Positions 13,701 to 54,563 of a stretch of DNA of 54,776 nucleotides are shown here, piece after piece (the first letter of the stretch is position 1; each line of letters begins with the position of its first letter). The stretch covers positions 1-54,776 of the forward strand of contig CAKKRO010000170.1 of NCBI GenBank assembly GCA_919902625.1, written 5' to 3'. The stretch is from Nitrosomonadaceae bacterium (GTDB lineage: Bacteria > Pseudomonadota > Gammaproteobacteria > Burkholderiales > Nitrosomonadaceae). The notes under the pieces were generated by a model. That model saw only the letters and a list, made by a program, of their open reading frames with translations. It had not been told where the DNA came from and ran no database searches. Made by a program: the position numbers and the translations under genes.

Positions 13701-14960
13701 ATGTTTAGCGACCTCAGTCAATCGCCGCTCAGTAAAAATTTACAACGCCTATTTCTGCTCCGAAACATTGCCATCGTTGCCCAATGCCTGACTTTTGCTT
13801 TAGTGTACTGGACCATTGACATTGTCATTCCATGGACTCAGATGATTTTGGTTGTTGCACTACTCGCCCTGTTAAACCTGCTGACATGGCTACGACTGCA
13901 CCGCAAATGGCCGGTATCCCACACGGAGTTTTTTTTGCAGCTACTGATAGACGTCCTGGCACTCAGCACGTTATTGTATTTCAGCGGCGGATCAACCAAT
14001 CCATTTATTTCATTATTTTTACTGCCCCTGACCATCGCTGCCGCCACATTGCCTTGGCGTTATACATGGGTCATGGCTATCATCACGATTGGCTGTTATA
14101 CGCTGTTATTATTCAACTATGTGCCATTACCTCACGATCACAACAATCATCTGATTGAATTTACGTTACATGTTTCGGGCATGTGGCTGGCATTCGTATT
14201 AAGTACCGTCATCATCGCATGGTTTGTCGTCAGAATGAGTTCCTCTATTCGAGATCGGGACCGGGATCTGGCCAAAGCACGGGAACACGCATTGCGCAAT
14301 GAACAGATTATTGCCTTGGGAACACTGGCAGCCGGTGCTGCACATGAACTCGGCACACCGCTTTCAACCATGGCGGTTGTCGCGGGAGAATTACAACAAG
14401 AATACACACACGATGTTGAATTCCAGAATAATATCCATATCCTGCGTGATCAGATTGCCCATTGCAAACAAACCTTAACCCAATTACTGGCAAAAGCGGG
14501 GCAAGCCCGGGCTGAGCACGGCAGTGAACTCCCCGTCGATGAGTTTCTTCATCAAGTTCTGGATAAATGGAAACTGATACGCCCTTCCGTTAAATTTACG
14601 TATCAAGGTGCAGGCACACAACCTGCGCCCAGAATTATGGATAATCAATTATTGAGCCAATCCTTGCTCAATTTGCTCAATAACGCTGCAGATGCATCCT
14701 CAGAATGCATTGAGATCAAGAGTAACTGGGATAATCTGGCACTACATCTTGAAATCATTGATGACGGCAAAGGACTATCTGCGGAAGCGTTGCAACGCGC
14801 AGGTGAAGCTTTCTTTTCCAGTAAAGCGCCAGGACAGGGTTTCGGAATCGGCTTGTTTCTGGCCAATGCAAACATTGAGCGGTTTGGCGGCAGTGTTCGT
14901 TTGTTTAATCTTGAAAATGGCGGTGCCTGCACACAGGTTTTTTTACCATTGATAGGATAG
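13701..14960 (+). CDS. regB: RegB/PrrB family redox sensor histidine kinase
   Basis: Multiple TM helices, quinone-binding GGSTNPF, H-box AAAHELGTPL-like (AGAAHELGTPL), redox Cys (AHCK), and HATPase N/G boxes. Confidence 0.92.
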   Translation: MFSDLSQSPLSKNLQRLFLLRNIAIVAQCLTFALVYWTIDIVIPWTQMILVVALLALLNLLTWLRLHRKWPVSHTEFFLQLLIDVLALSTLLYFSGGSTNPFISLFLLPLTIAAATLPWRYTWVMAIITIGCYTLLLFNYVPLPHDHNNHLIEFTLHVSGMWLAFVLSTVIIAWFVVRMSSSIRDRDRDLAKAREHALRNEQIIALGTLAAGAAHELGTPLSTMAVVAGELQQEYTHDVEFQNNIHILRDQIAHCKQTLTQLLAKAGQARAEHGSELPVDEFLHQVLDKWKLIRPSVKFTYQGAGTQPAPRIMDNQLLSQSLLNLLNNAADASSECIEIKSNWDNLALHLEIIDDGKGLSAEALQRAGEAFFSSKAPGQGFGIGLFLANANIERFGGSVRLFNLENGGACTQVFLPLIG

Positions 14961-14965
14961 GTGCC

Positions 14966-15526
14966 ATGACTGAATCTTTGACAACGGATACTAACGAATA
15001 TCCCAGTTTACTCATTGTCGATGACGATACCGTCTTTTGTGATGTGCTGGCCAAAGCAATGACAAAACGCGGTTTCAGTGTAGCCTGCGCACACACTATT
15101 GAAAATGCATTAAAACTGGCTGAAGCTTCAACACCTGAATATGCCATTGTTGACCTGAAATTATCCAGTGAGTCCGGGTTGGTTCTGGTTGAGCAATTGA
15201 AAACCCTCGATCCTGGCACCCGGATCGTTATGTTGACCGGTTATGCCAGTATTGCCACAGCGGTTGAAGCCATCAAACTCGGCGCTACGCACTACCTCGC
15301 AAAACCAGTCGATGCTGATGAGATCATGGCTGCTTTTGAACGCACCATGGGTGAATCCGGCATACCCATCAGCGCACATCCTTTATCGGTAGGCCGGCTT
15401 GAATGGGAGTACATTCATCGCATCCTCACTGAGAACGACAATAATATCTCGGTCACTGCAAGAATACTCAACATGCATCGCCGCACATTACAGCGCAAGC
15501 TTGCTAAGAAACCCCATCGCGAATAA
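14966..15526 (+). CDS. regA: RegA/PrrA family response regulator
   Basis: Receiver domain with LTGYASIATAVEAIKLGA and Fis-type HTH EWEYI...NISVTARILNMHRRTLQRKLAK. Confidence 0.95.
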   Translation: MTESLTTDTNEYPSLLIVDDDTVFCDVLAKAMTKRGFSVACAHTIENALKLAEASTPEYAIVDLKLSSESGLVLVEQLKTLDPGTRIVMLTGYASIATAVEAIKLGATHYLAKPVDADEIMAAFERTMGESGIPISAHPLSVGRLEWEYIHRILTENDNNISVTARILNMHRRTLQRKLAKKPHRE

Positions 15527-15537
15527 AGCATACGATC

Positions 15538-16626
15538 TTATAGACACTTTGCAATCACCCGGATATCTCGCCCGATCATGCGTAAATCCATAATTTCAAG
15601 TGCTTTCTTTTGCTCAAGATTAACTAATTCCGGCAATTTAATCATCCCTTGCGCATCGTCACCGAGTAAATGAGGCGCAAGAAAAATAATCATCTCATCG
15701 ACCAGTCCGGCTTTAACTAAAGCGCCATTCAGTCCACATCCGGCTTCTACCAATAACTCGTTCATTCCAAGATTAGCCAGCACTGTCATCATTTCCCCCA
15801 AGTCAACAGCACCTACTGCAACGGGTAAAACAATGACCTGAGCACCCATTCTACTGAGCGCTGCTTTTTTCTCCTGATTTTCAGTATTGGCCGTAAAAAT
15901 AAATACTTCTTCACCTTGCAGTAATCGAGCATCCAATGGAATAGCCAAATGACTGTCCACGACTATTTTTTTCGGCTGACGGTGTGTTGCGACATGACGT
16001 ACTGTCAATTGAGGATTATCTGATTTTACTGTACCGATACCTGTTAGGATGGCGCATGATCGTGCCCGCCACCGATGTCCGTCCTGCCGTGCGGCTTCGC
16101 CCGTAATCCACTGACTGGTTCCGTTATTCAACGCGGTTTTACCATCCAGGCTTGCTGCAGTTTTTAGCCTGACCCATGGCCTGTTATGAATCATACGGGT
16201 GACAAAACCCACATTCAGCGCATGCGCTTCTGTTTGTAATAAACCGGTTTGTACTGTAATACCCGCCCGTTCCAATAATGCGCAACCACGGCCTGATACC
16301 ATTGGATTGGGATCTTCCATGGCGATAATGACCTTGGCAATACCCGCATCAATCAAAGCATCCGCACAAGGCGGCGTACGTCCATAATGACTACAGGGTT
16401 CCAATGTGACATAGGCTGTCGCTCCACGCGCCGCCTCACCCGCTAAGTTCAATGCGTTAATCTCCGCATGCGGCTGCCCTGCCCGCTCATGCCAGCCACT
16501 TCCAACGATCTGCTCATTTTGCGTAATCACACAACCAACACGCGGGTTCGGTGCCGTGCTATAGAGCCCTTTCTCAGCCAAACGCAAAGCGGTTGACATG
16601 AAAGCATAATCAGCCGGAGAAAACAT
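15538..16626 (-). CDS. ribD: Bifunctional riboflavin deaminase/reductase RibD
   Basis: PNPRVGC, HAE, LEPCSHYGRTPPC and ASLDGKTA. Start moved to the ATG at 16626. Confidence 0.97.
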   Translation of the reverse strand: MFSPADYAFMSTALRLAEKGLYSTAPNPRVGCVITQNEQIVGSGWHERAGQPHAEINALNLAGEAARGATAYVTLEPCSHYGRTPPCADALIDAGIAKVIIAMEDPNPMVSGRGCALLERAGITVQTGLLQTEAHALNVGFVTRMIHNRPWVRLKTAASLDGKTALNNGTSQWITGEAARQDGHRWRARSCAILTGIGTVKSDNPQLTVRHVATHRQPKKIVVDSHLAIPLDARLLQGEEVFIFTANTENQEKKAALSRMGAQVIVLPVAVGAVDLGEMMTVLANLGMNELLVEAGCGLNGALVKAGLVDEMIIFLAPHLLGDDAQGMIKLPELVNLEQKKALEIMDLRMIGRDIRVIAKCL

Positions 16627-45554: not shown

Positions 45555-46991
45555 TCAAACGAATTGAGACAAATCAAGAGCGATTGGTGTGCCCACTATA
45601 GATGCGATTTCATTGGTATTGAGTTCGTTCAGGGCTGCGAAAGCAAACAAATCCCCTTGTGTCGCGAATGTCTTGCCCGGACCGATGAGCGCATTGAATG
45701 CATCCACATCAGCCTGTGATGGGGTAGTGCCAACAACAGTCTGGAATAAGTGTGTAATCAAGACCTCATTTGAAACACCCGGTGCATAGGTGTTGATCAT
45801 CTCCTGGGCTAAAGTCGCCAGATTTTTCCCATCCATTCCTTCCTTAACCCACTCACTGAGCAGACTGGCAGAAGGCGCTGCATTGAATGCAGCCTCCAAT
45901 AAGGCATAAATATTATAGGTTGCATCACCCACATTGGTATTGAACGCGAACAGATCATTATCAAACAATCCAAATTCTATATCGACAAGACTGTCTTTTC
46001 CATCAGTACCTGAAATCGTATTGTCGGTAAACAATTTGCTGAAATCATAAGTAGAAAAATTCCCGCTGAAGATAGCCGCATCAAATCCATCACCGCCATC
46101 CAAAACATCATCGCCCTTGCCACCAAATACATTATCGTTACCGCCGCCCAGATCAAAGAATTCATTAAAATCGAAACCTTGAACCAAGGGATCATCCGAT
46201 TCAGAACCTTTAGTATCCAGCGCCAACCCTGATCCGGAAAATGCTACGGCATGCAAATCCCCAATGAAAAGTCCCGAGTCGTAAATCTGATCCCCTGTAT
46301 CTGAAATGGCAACCTTGATCTTATTGACACCCACGTTTACCGGTGCAATAACCGTCAGCAAATTGGAGATGCCATCATATTCAAGAGATACAGTGCCGCC
46401 TGCATTATCCCTGAAATTTCCGGCCGCCAAATTAGCGCTTAGAATACTCAGCGGCTGATCAGCCCGGTTATTGAACAATGCATAGTTGACACCATTGATA
46501 TACACACCGGCAATATCGACAAAGCTGCTATCTTTAAACTCAGGAAATTCATCGGATCCAAAGACAAGATTAAATTTGACACTGGTTAAAGCCGGATCAC
46601 TGACGGTAAAACTGAACTCAAGCACAGTGGCATCCTCAACATCACCCGCCGCTGAAAAAGCACCATGAACCGTTGTATTCAGATCGGAATCCGTCTCAGA
46701 AGGCGTCAGCGATACGCCATAGCTGCCGGCGGTATTGGTTACCGGAGGATCTCCATCGCCTGAGGTAAGAAAAAGACCGGAGCCGATTCCAAGACCCGGA
46801 ATAGTGCCGTCATAGAAAGCAATGGATGAAGTGCTCGTTGTTGTACCACCTGAAGAAAAATCGGAGCTGGTTCCATATTTCAGCGTGATAGAACCCGCGC
46901 TGATTGTGACGCCTGATGCTGCCGATAACAAGGCTGAAGCCAAGCTTGAGGTCGTATGTGTTGGTGGATTGTATAAAGTAAAAGCTGACAT
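45555..46991 (-). CDS. Secreted/surface protein: choice-of-anchor L-like domain, RTX Ca-binding repeats and DUF4214-like C-terminus
   Basis: LFLTSG, DATVLEFSF, VFGSDEFPEF, EYDG and IKVAISDTGDQIYDSGLFI. GGGND/GGKGDD/GGDGFD nonapeptides. No N-terminal signal peptide. Confidence 0.72.
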   Translation of the reverse strand: MSAFTLYNPPTHTTSSLASALLSAASGVTISAGSITLKYGTSSDFSSGGTTTSTSSIAFYDGTIPGLGIGSGLFLTSGDGDPPVTNTAGSYGVSLTPSETDSDLNTTVHGAFSAAGDVEDATVLEFSFTVSDPALTSVKFNLVFGSDEFPEFKDSSFVDIAGVYINGVNYALFNNRADQPLSILSANLAAGNFRDNAGGTVSLEYDGISNLLTVIAPVNVGVNKIKVAISDTGDQIYDSGLFIGDLHAVAFSGSGLALDTKGSESDDPLVQGFDFNEFFDLGGGNDNVFGGKGDDVLDGGDGFDAAIFSGNFSTYDFSKLFTDNTISGTDGKDSLVDIEFGLFDNDLFAFNTNVGDATYNIYALLEAAFNAAPSASLLSEWVKEGMDGKNLATLAQEMINTYAPGVSNEVLITHLFQTVVGTTPSQADVDAFNALIGPGKTFATQGDLFAFAALNELNTNEIASIVGTPIALDLSQFV

Positions 46992-50189: not shown

Positions 50190-52412
50190 ATGATTACCGA
50201 ATTCAAAAAAATTGATTCTCTCTCGCCGTCTGACTTTGAATTTTTTGTCCGCGATGTGTTTGTTGCCGCTGGCTGGAGTGATGCCATCATTACAAAAATC
50301 GGACAAGAATTTCAGCACGGTGACGGCGGTGTTGATATTTTTGCCTATAAAAATAAACGCAAATTTGCTATCGAAGTTAAACAAAGAACAGCGGGAACAA
50401 CAGTTGATGTTAAAGCCTTAAATCAGTTAGTCACGGGTGCAAAACTCACTAATGTCGTCAATATGATTTTAGTGACCAATTCGTATTTCACCTCTGAGGT
50501 GAAAGTACGAGCGTTAAGACTTGGAGTCGAGCTACTTGATCGTGACGGTTTACAGAACTTGTGGATTGAAAAGCATTCTGAAATCGGACGGCAAATCCAG
50601 CCCAGAACATACCAAGAAACCGTTATTCAAGACAGCTTGACGCGCTTTAACGCAGGGCAGATTCGTTTGTTAATCGAAATGGCAACAGGGTTGGGGAAAA
50701 CCTACACCGTTGCCCATTTGTTAAAGCAGATATTGCAACAGGGCAAAGTTAAGCGTGTGCTGTTCTTGGCGCATCAGGTCGAAATACTATTGCAATCGGT
50801 TACCGCCTTCAAAAACGTTTTGGGTATTGGCACTTACTCGTTTTCGGCCTGTTTTGGTGGGGCTGACCCAGAGCAAACCGATTTTGTGTTTGGAAGTTTC
50901 GATACGCTATTTAGCAAAATCTCCACGCTGGAAAAAGAAACTTTTGACGTGATAGTAGTTGATGAAGCTCATCACACCCCAGCCAGAACTTATGCCACAG
51001 TCGTCGAGCATTTTCATCCAAAATTATTGATAGGCCTGACCGCAACGCCATTTCGTGAGGATAACAAAGACGTACTAGCATTTTTTGGTGGTGCAGCAGG
51101 GCATGTGGGCAAGTATGATTTAGCATGGGCATTGCGCCATAACAAACTGGCATTTCCAAAGTATTTGGTTTTGCTCGATGACTTGGATCAATCGCGTATA
51201 GACCAACTGAATCATGGCATGTCGATTAGCGATTTAGACCAACGACTTTTTCTGCATAAAAAAGATGAAGAGGTTGTCCGCATCATAGAAAAAACTGTAC
51301 ACGACAAACAAATCCCCAATCTCAAGGGTATTGTTTTTTGTCGCAGCATCCAACACATAACTTATCTGATCCAGTTTTTCCCGCCGGGCAGCGCGACTTT
51401 TGTGCATTCTCAAATGAGTGATTCACAACGCTGGCAAAACATCCGCGATTTTCGTGAAGGAAATTATCGTTATATTCTGGTGCGAGATTTATTCAACGAA
51501 GGTATTGATATTCCAGAAACCAATCTGCTGGTTTTTATGCGCTACACGGGATCACATACGATATGGTTGCAACAACTAGGCCGGGGGCTACGCAAAACAC
51601 CCAACAAAGATTACGTTCATGTATTGGATTTTGTTGGTTCATTGGAGCGTCTAAACGAAGTGCATCAACTCAGCAAAAGCGTAAAGCACATTCCCATTGA
51701 AAAAGAAAATTGGGAGCCGCGCGATAAAAAAGAAACCGTGCATAACTCTTCGTTGGAAGTGAGCTATAGCCAATCTGCCGCGCAAGTTTTGCAACTTATA
51801 GAAGAGTTGCAATATCGATTGAAATCACGAATGCAGGTAATTGAGGTGCTACGAAGATACTACGAGGAAAACAATCGTATCCCCGAATTGAATGAGATAG
51901 AGAGCGCATTGATTGATGTTACCGCTGACCAAATCGCTACACATTTTGATTCGTATTTTGGCTATTTGGAATCAGCATTAACTGGTCAATATGATCAAGG
52001 GGAATTTCGTGCCTTATGCTTGGATTACGCGCGACATTTTTATCAACAAGATCGCATCTGCCCCAGCTATCGAGCGATTAGCTTTGCCAAGCAGCATAAC
52101 GGCTTGCTTGCCTGCACCGAGGCTGAAATTAAATTTTTGTTGGGCGACGAAAGAAAGTTGGAAAGTCTTTTATCCCAAAATACCATTCACCACGATCAAC
52201 AAGCCGCATCCAAACTTGCCGATACAATGCTGACCATTAACGCACCGCTTGCTGAAATCAATGAAGAATCATTACTCATTGATAAATATGTCAACATTGT
52301 TAAAACGCGACAAGATTTATTGAGCCTTTCTCCTGAAGAGCGGGCAGAAATTAAACGTATATTTAATTCAGAATTTCGTTTTCTCAGTTGTTTGCAAAAA
52401 ACAGCAAAGTAA
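50190..52412 (+). CDS. Mrr-like PD-(D/E)xK nuclease fused to an SF2 (ResIII/DEAH) helicase; putative defence effector
   Basis: N-terminal LSPSDFE...GDGGVDI...EVKQR...LVTNSYFT...ELLD (Mrr_cat-like). Helicase motifs PRTYQ, MATGLGKT, DEAHH, TATP, FNEGIDIP and QQLGRGLR. Confidence 0.88.
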   Translation: MITEFKKIDSLSPSDFEFFVRDVFVAAGWSDAIITKIGQEFQHGDGGVDIFAYKNKRKFAIEVKQRTAGTTVDVKALNQLVTGAKLTNVVNMILVTNSYFTSEVKVRALRLGVELLDRDGLQNLWIEKHSEIGRQIQPRTYQETVIQDSLTRFNAGQIRLLIEMATGLGKTYTVAHLLKQILQQGKVKRVLFLAHQVEILLQSVTAFKNVLGIGTYSFSACFGGADPEQTDFVFGSFDTLFSKISTLEKETFDVIVVDEAHHTPARTYATVVEHFHPKLLIGLTATPFREDNKDVLAFFGGAAGHVGKYDLAWALRHNKLAFPKYLVLLDDLDQSRIDQLNHGMSISDLDQRLFLHKKDEEVVRIIEKTVHDKQIPNLKGIVFCRSIQHITYLIQFFPPGSATFVHSQMSDSQRWQNIRDFREGNYRYILVRDLFNEGIDIPETNLLVFMRYTGSHTIWLQQLGRGLRKTPNKDYVHVLDFVGSLERLNEVHQLSKSVKHIPIEKENWEPRDKKETVHNSSLEVSYSQSAAQVLQLIEELQYRLKSRMQVIEVLRRYYEENNRIPELNEIESALIDVTADQIATHFDSYFGYLESALTGQYDQGEFRALCLDYARHFYQQDRICPSYRAISFAKQHNGLLACTEAEIKFLLGDERKLESLLSQNTIHHDQQAASKLADTMLTINAPLAEINEESLLIDKYVNIVKTRQDLLSLSPEERAEIKRIFNSEFRFLSCLQKTAK

Positions 52413-52427
52413 TTTAGATCAACGCAA

Positions 52428-54563
52428 ATGAATGATGATCCCGAAGTAGATATTTCAGAATATACCGAAGTGCTTCTGTCCAGTCTCATTCTGCCAGATC
52501 ATTACGTAAAACTGATTAAGCGAATGAACAGTGCTTTCAACTACTCAGGATATGCAGGCGCTTCTTTTACGGTAGAAACAGTGGGGAATATTTTGCAACT
52601 TGCACCGCATCAAGTTGCAAAATATCCGGGGGTCGGGAAAAAATACGTTGATACATTGATTGCGTTTAAAAAAGAATTGCCATCGTTTCTGAACATCACA
52701 AAACAAAAGGCAGCGATTATAGAATTGCCCCCGTTAATTACGCTTTTACCAACACAACTAGAAACACCAATAGCACAGTTGGCGTTTCCAGCACAATATC
52801 AAAAGCTCATAAAAAGAATTTCAGTGGTAGCAGTCCACGTAGTCACGGTTCAAGACCTCATTAACCTCGACCCAACTAGCTTTGCAGAATTACCTACTGT
52901 AGGTAAGCTCTATGTTCAGAATTTGATTGAGCTGAAAAAACAATTACCTGACCTGTTGCGGGCGCAAGCGAAAAAATTCGAATCATTCAACTCAATTGAA
53001 TTGAATGAGATAGACAATATCCTCATTGAAGATATTGAAAGGTATTTATGGACATTAGATGAAAGGAAAATAGACATTGCGCTTTCTCGCTGGGGATTTA
53101 ATCACAAACATGAGACCCTCCAAGAAGTGGCCAACCGATATGACATCGAAAGGGAGCGAATACGCCAAATCGAAAAGCCTATTAATACCCAATTGGCACT
53201 GCATTTGACAATACAGCCTAAAGCTTTATGGGCAAATATCCGTGCAAATATGGCCGAAGATTTAACAATGTTGTTGCCTAACTTAGCCAAATGTTTTGCT
53301 ACAGATAAACTATTCTACGCCTTTATTGAATTATGTTGCCAAGTTGAAGCAGGCAGCATTAGCAAGATATTCCTTACCAAAATTCGTTCTGAAATTATCG
53401 ACTTGCTGTTTTGCTCTACTCCTTCCCCTGTTGCACAAGAAATTATCATCAATGAACTGATGTCGAATTACGGATACGACAAGGCATCGGCAATACACGG
53501 CATTAAGCAACTCGAGAAATCCAAGAACATTAAGGTAACCGAACAAGGCATTTATCCAATGAAACTTGCTAGAGCCGAGGCCGTGGCTCATATCTTAGCT
53601 TCTCATCCCGAAGGTTTGCCTTGGAAAGATATTGCCAAAATAGTCAATGCAAAGGGATGCTCATCAACACAAATGGATGAGACAAGATCAACTCATGGGT
53701 TCAATGATTCCGAATATATTTATCTATGTGCAAAGGGGACATACCGAAATCTACTCTTTCTTAACCTTGAACAGTTTGACATCCTTGAAATCATGCAACA
53801 TCTGATTGATTATTTACAACAGAAACAAATAACTGCTTCGCATTTGCACGATTATTACTATCAAACAAAAGGTCAACGCTGCGAAATAGAATACTTTACC
53901 TTGCGTCATCTTGTCAGAACGTATGGCGAAGAGTACGGAATCTACTTTGAGGGTAAATCAAATGTGGATAGTGTAAGCCTTGATCCTGATTCAAGCCATA
54001 TCACCCAAGCCGATGTCATTATCAAAGTGCTTAATGAATCCAAAGTAGCCATGACCAAGCAAGAAATAGCTGAGCGCTTAAAGAGCAAAAGCGTGGGACA
54101 TGCCAGTTTCTACCTAAACAATTTGAGAGAAGAAGGCAAGGTAGTACGCGTTGATAAAATGGTCTACACCACACCTGAAAAAGCCTTCAGCAATATCGAC
54201 ACCAATGCAGTCATGCAGGTTATACGGGAGATTTTAAACGTAAAGAATGTCATCGTTGAGGCAGACGTATTTCGGGAATACGTCAATATGGAACTGAATT
54301 TAAGCTACTCAAAATACATCTATGCCGCCCTACTCGACACCCAGTTAAAAGAATTGGGATGGTATCGCCATAACATGTTATTCAGCAAAAGCCCGATACC
54401 ATACAAAAACTTGTTGGATATGTGTAAACAATTATGTAATCCGAAGTTGCCCAATGACGAGAACGCTAAAATTCTTCAACAAGCAGTGTGGTTGAGTGAT
54501 GCAGTAACCACAACGGTAATTCAACAGTGGAGACGGCATTTAATGACACATGTACCAGATTGA
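52428..54563 (+). CDS. Multi-domain protein: two RNAP alpha-CTD-like repeats, sigma70 region-4-like HTH and winged helices
   Basis: Repeats aa ~13-85 and ~110-174 (TVxD/NxxxL...PGVGKK / PTVGKL). aa ~207-256 LDERKIDIALSRWG...ETLQEVANRYDIERERIRQIEK resembles sigma70 r4. Later wHTH-like segments. It starts 15 bp after the helicase stop. Confidence 0.8.
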   Translation: MNDDPEVDISEYTEVLLSSLILPDHYVKLIKRMNSAFNYSGYAGASFTVETVGNILQLAPHQVAKYPGVGKKYVDTLIAFKKELPSFLNITKQKAAIIELPPLITLLPTQLETPIAQLAFPAQYQKLIKRISVVAVHVVTVQDLINLDPTSFAELPTVGKLYVQNLIELKKQLPDLLRAQAKKFESFNSIELNEIDNILIEDIERYLWTLDERKIDIALSRWGFNHKHETLQEVANRYDIERERIRQIEKPINTQLALHLTIQPKALWANIRANMAEDLTMLLPNLAKCFATDKLFYAFIELCCQVEAGSISKIFLTKIRSEIIDLLFCSTPSPVAQEIIINELMSNYGYDKASAIHGIKQLEKSKNIKVTEQGIYPMKLARAEAVAHILASHPEGLPWKDIAKIVNAKGCSSTQMDETRSTHGFNDSEYIYLCAKGTYRNLLFLNLEQFDILEIMQHLIDYLQQKQITASHLHDYYYQTKGQRCEIEYFTLRHLVRTYGEEYGIYFEGKSNVDSVSLDPDSSHITQADVIIKVLNESKVAMTKQEIAERLKSKSVGHASFYLNNLREEGKVVRVDKMVYTTPEKAFSNIDTNAVMQVIREILNVKNVIVEADVFREYVNMELNLSYSKYIYAALLDTQLKELGWYRHNMLFSKSPIPYKNLLDMCKQLCNPKLPNDENAKILQQAVWLSDAVTTTVIQQWRRHLMTHVPD

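Follow-up and report, generated by a model that had tools for sequence, protein, structure and literature searches.

Why would a protein with features of the RNA polymerase alpha subunit and of a sigma factor be encoded immediately behind a nuclease-helicase? The question is raised by a stretch of DNA of 54,776 nucleotides (hereafter, the window) from a Nitrosomonadaceae bacterium (contig CAKKRO010000170.1). An original prediction, made from the letters alone, had pointed to two tandem alpha-CTD-like repeats and a sigma70 region 4 (sigma4) within one non-sigma chain, and had suggested mimicry of the RNA polymerase holoenzyme or binding to strong phage promoters. The answer that we favour, while giving it slightly less than an even chance, is that the product of this gene would guide a restriction system of two genes to its DNA, as a targeting subunit that anchors at a -35-like sequence; that the cassette serves defence of some kind is, in our judgement, probable.

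A nuclease-helicase gene and its multi-domain partner

The two genes and their regions are as follows.

50190..52412, plus strand: gene 1, 740 aa, with Pfam matches Mrr_cat, ResIII and Helicase_C (aa 8-124, Mrr-type PD-(D/E)xK nuclease; aa 135-498, SauUSI-like SF2 ATPase; aa 499-740, unassigned C-terminal region)
52428..54563, plus strand: gene 2, 711 aa, multi-domain predicted DNA-binding protein
52467..52691, plus strand: repeat 1 of gene 2 (aa 14-88), putative degenerate alpha-CTD/HhH domain in a slot exchanged among relatives
52761..52958, plus strand: repeat 2 of gene 2 (aa 112-177), putative degenerate alpha-CTD/HhH domain
53010..53195, plus strand: sigma70 region-4 helix-turn-helix of gene 2 (aa 195-256), with an RpoD-type recognition helix
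53382..54392, plus strand: about five predicted winged-helix domains of gene 2 (aa 319-655, from the secondary-structure pattern of the AF2 model), the second of them HARE-HTH-like

The nuclease and motor motifs of gene 1 are intact: D49, E62 and K64, the Walker A and DEAH motifs and motif VI are invariant in 70 aligned rows. The closest solved structure of the motor is that of SauUSI (7CLG, E 3.6e-39, aa 135-498), and in PADLOC the motor matches mREase_IV best, with E 7e-55 and across its ATPase alone; the motor likewise resembles RadD and XPB. In SauUSI, a target-recognition domain activates the ATPase, with translocation and shredding of DNA (PMC7913695). Gene 1 shares with SauUSI the order of an N-terminal nuclease followed by an SF2 ATPase, and the lack of a cognate methylase. 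It differs in that an Mrr PD-(D/E)xK domain replaces the N-terminal PLD nuclease, that Pfam finds neither an SRA domain nor DUF3427 in it, and that a separate predicted DNA-binding partner of 711 aa accompanies it. The C-terminal region of gene 1 might itself carry target recognition, its resemblance to the clusters of DUF8090/DUF3427, the C-terminal families of SauUSI, having an Atlas score of 0.82, which is below the reliable range.

Gene 2 starts 15 bases after the stop codon of gene 1 and has 177 relatives of similar length. All three peptides quoted in the original prediction are present in its reading frame (52428-54563); the span noted there, aa 13-256, is about the first third of the protein and leaves aa 257-711 outside, and the nuclease-helicase gene next to it goes unmentioned there. 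The full chain runs from two degenerate repeats through a sigma70 region 4 to about five predicted winged helices, and a survey of conserved columns made no catalytic residue set evident. The AF2 model of the whole protein has a mean pLDDT of 79.8 and a pTM of 0.48, with no Foldseek match at E <= 0.001.

A complex prediction for aa 185-711 of gene 2 with aa 330-740 of gene 1 scored 0.56 against 0.00 for the best control, with a contact agreement between runs of at least 86% and a partner pLDDT of at least 65. Of 157 solved pairs, 18 fall in this band, as do both of the mismatches that passed among 215; the prediction tentatively suggests that the two products may be in physical contact.

Where sigma4 is conserved

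The sigma-like helix-turn-helix was recognised correctly at the outset: Sigma70_r4 matches aa 210-250 above its Pfam cut-off (27.1 vs 24.1 bits), and sigma factors in the PDB match the segment at E 4e-5. The accompanying claim that gene 2 does not encode a sigma factor holds as well. Pfam finds region 4 only, with no family match to sigma region 2 or 3 at E <= 1, and the sigma matches of NCBIfam are confined to aa 178-261, all below their cut-offs; a functional sigma factor was rejected as a candidate because region 2 is absent from both.

Residues R242, E243, R246 and Q247 of the window copy are the equivalents of R584, E585, R588 and Q589 of RpoD (E. coli numbering), which we take to be its -35 contacts, while T583 is replaced by E241. 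Among 129 distant relatives, R584, E585, R586, R588 and Q589 match the host RpoD in 115-118, whereas K593, R596, K597, R599, H600 and P601 do so in only 0-39; these residues after the helix (593-601, E. coli numbering) presumably form the activator- and flap-side contacts. Of the 30 columns that are conserved to at least 85% in 114 of the 146 distant relatives (median identity 31%), 8 lie in sigma4. Its helix for reading the -35 element shows about 90% conservation, with 31% identity overall. We read this pattern as selection retaining the DNA-reading helix of sigma4 and not its protein-contact tail.

Degenerate repeats of probable alpha-CTD origin

That the N-terminal part of gene 2 contains two internal repeats is clear. 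They are identical at 28 of 75 positions, with a local alignment score of 107; 5000 shuffles averaged 23 and never exceeded 49, and a chance repeat was rejected on this basis. Their likeness to alpha-CTD is accepted as to descent, but it does not extend to a sequence match. The window's repeats have no Pfam match to RNA_pol_A_CTD (PF03118) and only one to HHH_5 below its cut-off, a 39-row repeat profile matched no alpha-CTD among PDB sequences, and the hhalign probability is 5.9%; proof at sequence level therefore failed.

Compared by structure, alpha-CTD does fill the top ranks, with weak scores. The AlphaFold model of repeat 2 (pLDDT 88.6) has RNA polymerase alpha chains as its four best VIA matches (Z 6.7, 6.5, 6.3 and 5.7), the first with an rmsd of 2.5 over 64 aligned residues, which is weak in absolute terms, and the runners-up are the N-domain of RAD51C (Z 5.7, within 1 Z of the alpha chains) and SAM domains (about 5). 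In Foldseek, the top nine rows for repeat 2 all belong to RNA polymerase or alpha-CTD (E 0.04-0.37, weak alone), and no match to the repeat model reaches E <= 0.001.

The position of the repeats is stronger evidence of an alpha-CTD origin than these scores. In 12 of 120 close relatives the first slot is occupied by a near-canonical alpha-CTD above the Pfam cut-off (five of the 12, when rescanned, gave E 1e-18 to 1e-22), and one such recaptured domain is 63% identical to the host RpoA over 49 aa. A third alpha-CTD-like type was found in 5 of 22 further N-termini inspected, two with sub-threshold Pfam matches there, and four distant relatives carry one or two canonical copies; the number of repeats in relatives ranges from 1 to 4. 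On the weak structure matches together with these true alpha-CTDs in the same slot, the window's repeats probably have the alpha-CTD fold.

A likeness of fold is not a likeness of DNA contacts. We take R265, N268, N294, G296, K298 and S299 (E. coli numbering) to be the UP-element contacts of alpha-CTD. In a collinear alignment anchored on the host RpoA (P 0.006), the equivalents of R265, N268, N294 and S299 are replaced in both window repeats; the HhH glycine G296 is retained in both, and K298 in repeat 1 only. With these contact residues lost, the window copy is unlikely to read UP elements in the manner of alpha-CTD, and the suggestion that this copy reproduces the UP-element face of the holoenzyme is not supported. 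Compared with alpha-CTD and sigma70 region 4 of the holoenzyme on UP/-35 DNA (PDB 3N97), gene 2 has both module types and the sigma4 recognition helix, but it lacks sigma regions 2-3, the UP-contact residues and the post-helix activator-contact residues. With both the UP-contact and the activator/flap residues gone, the case for mimicry of the whole holoenzyme is weak.

Repeated exchange of the first slot

In a quick tree built from the C-terminal core of gene 2 (128 rows), all 12 canonical alpha-CTD forms belong to a single clade of 34 rows, of which the window is also a member (SH-aLRT 96). They are scattered inside it: 10 changes are counted, of which well-supported branches require at least 6, and shuffling gives a mean of 11.6; the count of changes is somewhat high, three N-terminally truncated rows having been scored as non-canonical. 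This scatter indicates that the N-terminal module has been exchanged or lost repeatedly, with three alpha-CTD types alternating in slot 1 across one clade. The repeats are also the fastest-changing part of the cassette: their median identity to the window is 48% (16 loci), against 90% for the nuclease, 92% for the motor, 74% for the gene 1 tail and about 70% for the gene 2 core (17 loci). The repeated swapping of an rpoA-like alpha-CTD slot is what the present analysis contributes beyond a known class of architecture.

Such rapid change invites another explanation. Phages encode proteins that attack the host RNA polymerase, such as AsiA-like anti-sigmas and alpha ADP-ribosylases, and the alpha-CTD and sigma4 modules could be an integrated bait for them, whose binding or modification would release the nuclease-motor. 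The pace of the repeats relative to the rest of the cassette, the alternation of three types, the closeness of the recaptured one to host RpoA and the variable repeat number would all suit a decoy. The conservation of sigma4, on the other hand, is centred on the helix that reads DNA, with residues 593-601 lost, and five winged helices point to DNA as the main ligand. Moreover, in E. coli 162.2 a near-identical, intact gene 1 stands beside a gene 2 truncated at aa 232; provided that the genes are expressed there, gene 2 does not act as an indispensable restraint. We consider a decoy improbable.

A predicted array of winged helices

The DNA-targeting reading draws on the C-terminal part of gene 2 as well, where aa 526-585 match winged helices (Z 9.9; rmsd 1.1 for 55 aa) and the longer segment aa 525-645 matches the tandem winged helices of SelB (Z 9.5; rmsd 5.2 for 114 aa). 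HARE-HTH is detected in the window copy below its cut-off (E 0.0045, 17.8 vs 25.9 bits), and in the relative P0047 above it (26.2 bits).

The most conserved motif of the family lies in the third predicted winged helix, at aa 489-514 (53892-53969), where the columns Y489, R493, G500, G504, F507, G509, S511 and D514 are 93-100% conserved.

A modification-dependent (type IV) system, in which the winged-helix/HARE-HTH array would read a modified base or backbone of phage DNA and sigma4 would be a general anchor only, seems to us rather unlikely, though several observations speak for it. The best PADLOC match of the motor, over its ATPase, is to mREase_IV, a cognate methylase is absent, relatives are fused to GmrSD and DndH, and the third winged helix carries the invariant patch Y489/R493/F507/G509/S511/D514. 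Winged-helix domains are able to sense 6mA, and HARE-HTH has been proposed as a sensor of modified cytosine (PMC11037411). What this explanation leaves unaccounted for is the RpoD-type reading helix, conserved at about 90%, and the recapture of a true alpha-CTD; the HARE-HTH match, moreover, stays under its cut-off in the window copy.

Linkage, breakage and patchy distribution

The two genes are tightly linked. Gene 1 lies upstream of gene 2 in 28 of 33 loci, a set whose members are not independent (L005 does not differ from the window, and there are several near-duplicates); among the other five, four have no upstream DNA and one (L021) is a 5'-truncated relic. The E. coli pair (WP_001530084 and WP_000410983), with its genes one base apart, is 59% and 31% identical to the window pair. 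Gene 2 was matched in 83 of 5426 E. coli genomes and the whole pair in 72, and in the named records examined the cassette sits at ydeT-yneK, except for one beside fimA.

Several copies are rearranged. At L004, counted among the 28 linked loci, a type I restriction-modification set with an HsdR N-domain, a methylase and HsdS has a 5' fragment of gene 1 on one side and a 3' fragment of gene 2 on the other (L004:798-5830), so that one defence system seems to have taken the place of another's central part. In E. coli C, a classic phage host (NZ_CP020543.1, L067:3617-7636), the cassette is broken twice: an IS3-family element separates nuclease from helicase, and gene 2 ends after about 207 aa. On the IncHI1A plasmid NZ_CP070915.1 (L064:8269-11494), gene 2 occurs without the helicase, with IS1 directly upstream, and adjoins a DMSO/selenate reductase cluster; the same protein was matched on two Salmonella plasmids.

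Strains with an intact gene 1 and a broken gene 2, such as E. coli 162.2, argue against an essential antitoxin role for gene 2, which was rejected as unsupported, and fit a role as activator.

The plasmid copies of the E. coli gene 2 without gene 1 bear on a further explanation, that of a transcription regulator or blocker acting on strong promoters (phage early ones, or that of its own operon) independently of the nuclease. It would also agree with the intact sigma4 helix and with a protein in which no catalytic residue set is evident. No shared motif, however, is visible by eye upstream of gene 1 in 20 aligned regions, promoter-like sites occur at chance level (3 vs 2.3), and no autoregulatory operator was seen; in addition, gene 2 is the second of the pair and its relatives are fused directly to nucleases. 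We judge a regulator quite improbable.

The occurrence of the cassette is rare and patchy. Among 400 other genomes of the phylum, sampled with a first-look filter that may miss distant members, no full-length relative of gene 2 was found, the matches listed being short and of the sigma4 region only; the tail of gene 1 was found in 0 of 300 genomes of the class. The cassette has a GC content of 41% against 46% for the genome. No copy of gene 2 was matched in phage or viral collections, a result that is uninformative on the target.

This rarity, together with frequent breakage by IS elements and frameshifts, weighs against a role outside defence, in which a mobile helicase for repair or recombination would be loaded on DNA by its partner, as do the intact Mrr nuclease and the fusions of relatives to defence domains. 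The resemblance of the motor to RadD and XPB is what favours such a role, which we hold to be very unlikely.

A module shared with other defence systems

Representatives matching gene 2 at E <= 0.001 number 382, and its ESM Atlas neighbours, from several phyla, carry PF03118, PF04545 and PF05066 (scores 0.92-0.97). Among 24 relatives chosen for length, several are fused to GmrSD, HerA (one with DndH), Eco57I/MmeI methylase, HEPN or AAA domains, and others show sigma4 alone or no domain. The module of alpha-CTD, sigma4 and winged helices thus recurs as a non-catalytic DNA-binding part of DNA-directed defence systems.

Its placement varies: between DndH and HerA in P0192 (2422 aa), after a GmrSD/HEC-05 nuclease in P0240 (1223 aa), and ahead of type IIG-like methylase domains in P0197 and P0203 (about 2000 aa). 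On the Ruegeria plasmid NZ_CP045388.1 (L065:1-13396), an alpha-CTD-like/sigma4 protein of 1026 aa is encoded between dndCDE and the gene of a phosphorothioation restriction enzyme.

The class of architecture is already known; the two-gene pair is unnamed. Aravind and Iyer reportedly described, in 2012, bacterial proteins that join features of the RNA polymerase alpha subunit and of sigma factors with HARE-HTH. Gene 2 resembles them in combining alpha-CTD/HhH, sigma4 and a tentatively HARE-HTH-like winged helix in one non-sigma chain, but its alpha-CTDs are degenerate and its partner is a specific Mrr-SF2 gene. In BREX type 2, the C-terminal half of PglW carries three winged helices behind an alpha-CTD-like domain (PMC12839542). 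Profiles of PglW and MzaA match gene 2 weakly, at aa 109-257 and aa 198-252 respectively, but with scores far under their cut-offs (17 vs 990 for PglW, 32.7 vs 800 bits for MzaA); gene 2 also lacks their NERD nuclease, kinases and STAND domain, and no BREX or MZA genes lie nearby. No PADLOC 2023 model covers gene 1 or gene 2 as a whole, and a search of openly accessible full-text articles, E. coli accessions included, found no description of the pair.

A possible targeting mechanism

Mechanistically, the restriction reading would proceed as follows. The gene 2 product would dock on the neighbouring Mrr nuclease-helicase, and its sigma4 helix would anchor on a -35-like sequence while the winged helices and HhH repeats grip the flanking DNA and supply a second signal separating invader from host. 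By analogy with SauUSI, target recognition would then trigger the motor, with ATP-driven translocation and cleavage of the invading DNA. The fast-changing alpha-CTD slot could tune specificity, and the outcome would presumably be anti-phage activity.

The second signal matters, since promoter binding alone cannot tell self from non-self: the host genome has 1127 TTGACA sites and the cassette has no methylase of its own, so a -35 reader needs a second discriminator. A bolder version goes further. The restriction system would find invaders by means of stolen RNA polymerase parts, with sigma4 reading promoter DNA and the alpha-CTD of the host repeatedly re-captured as a swappable sensor. That sensor would either single out strong, AT-rich promoters of phages or lure phage proteins that hijack RNA polymerase, and the SauUSI-like motor nuclease would then be launched; taken as a whole, we consider this version rather doubtful.

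The restriction reading, if correct, would add a class of restriction enzymes that derive their specificity subunit from the parts with which RNA polymerase reads promoters. The alpha-CTD/sigma4/winged-helix module, which recurs in PglW and in proteins linked to Dnd, GmrSD and methylases, would thereby gain its first function. Since 72 E. coli genomes hold the pair intact, the matter is open to direct experiment.

Genomic surroundings

In the window, the cassette lies beside cysK and an oxidase cluster, outside any defence island, which counts against the restriction reading. Past the window end, in what is apparently the same genome, genes for a LodA-like oxidase, a flavoprotein and a tyrosinase-domain protein follow downstream (L005:5028-11105). 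Neighbours at other loci, in a non-random set of 32 hand-picked ORFs, include, in its favour, AbiH, toxin-antitoxin pairs, type I restriction-modification, TIR and an integrase. At L001, two Cys-containing ORFs that look related, each some 610-630 aa long and without a Pfam match, flank the cassette/AbiH island (L001:2026-3906 and 14007-15833). Upstream in the window, at 45555-46991, lies a gene for a Ser/Thr/Gly-rich protein of 478 aa, probably secreted and located at the cell surface, in which repeats resembling the calcium-binding ones of RTX proteins are seen by eye.
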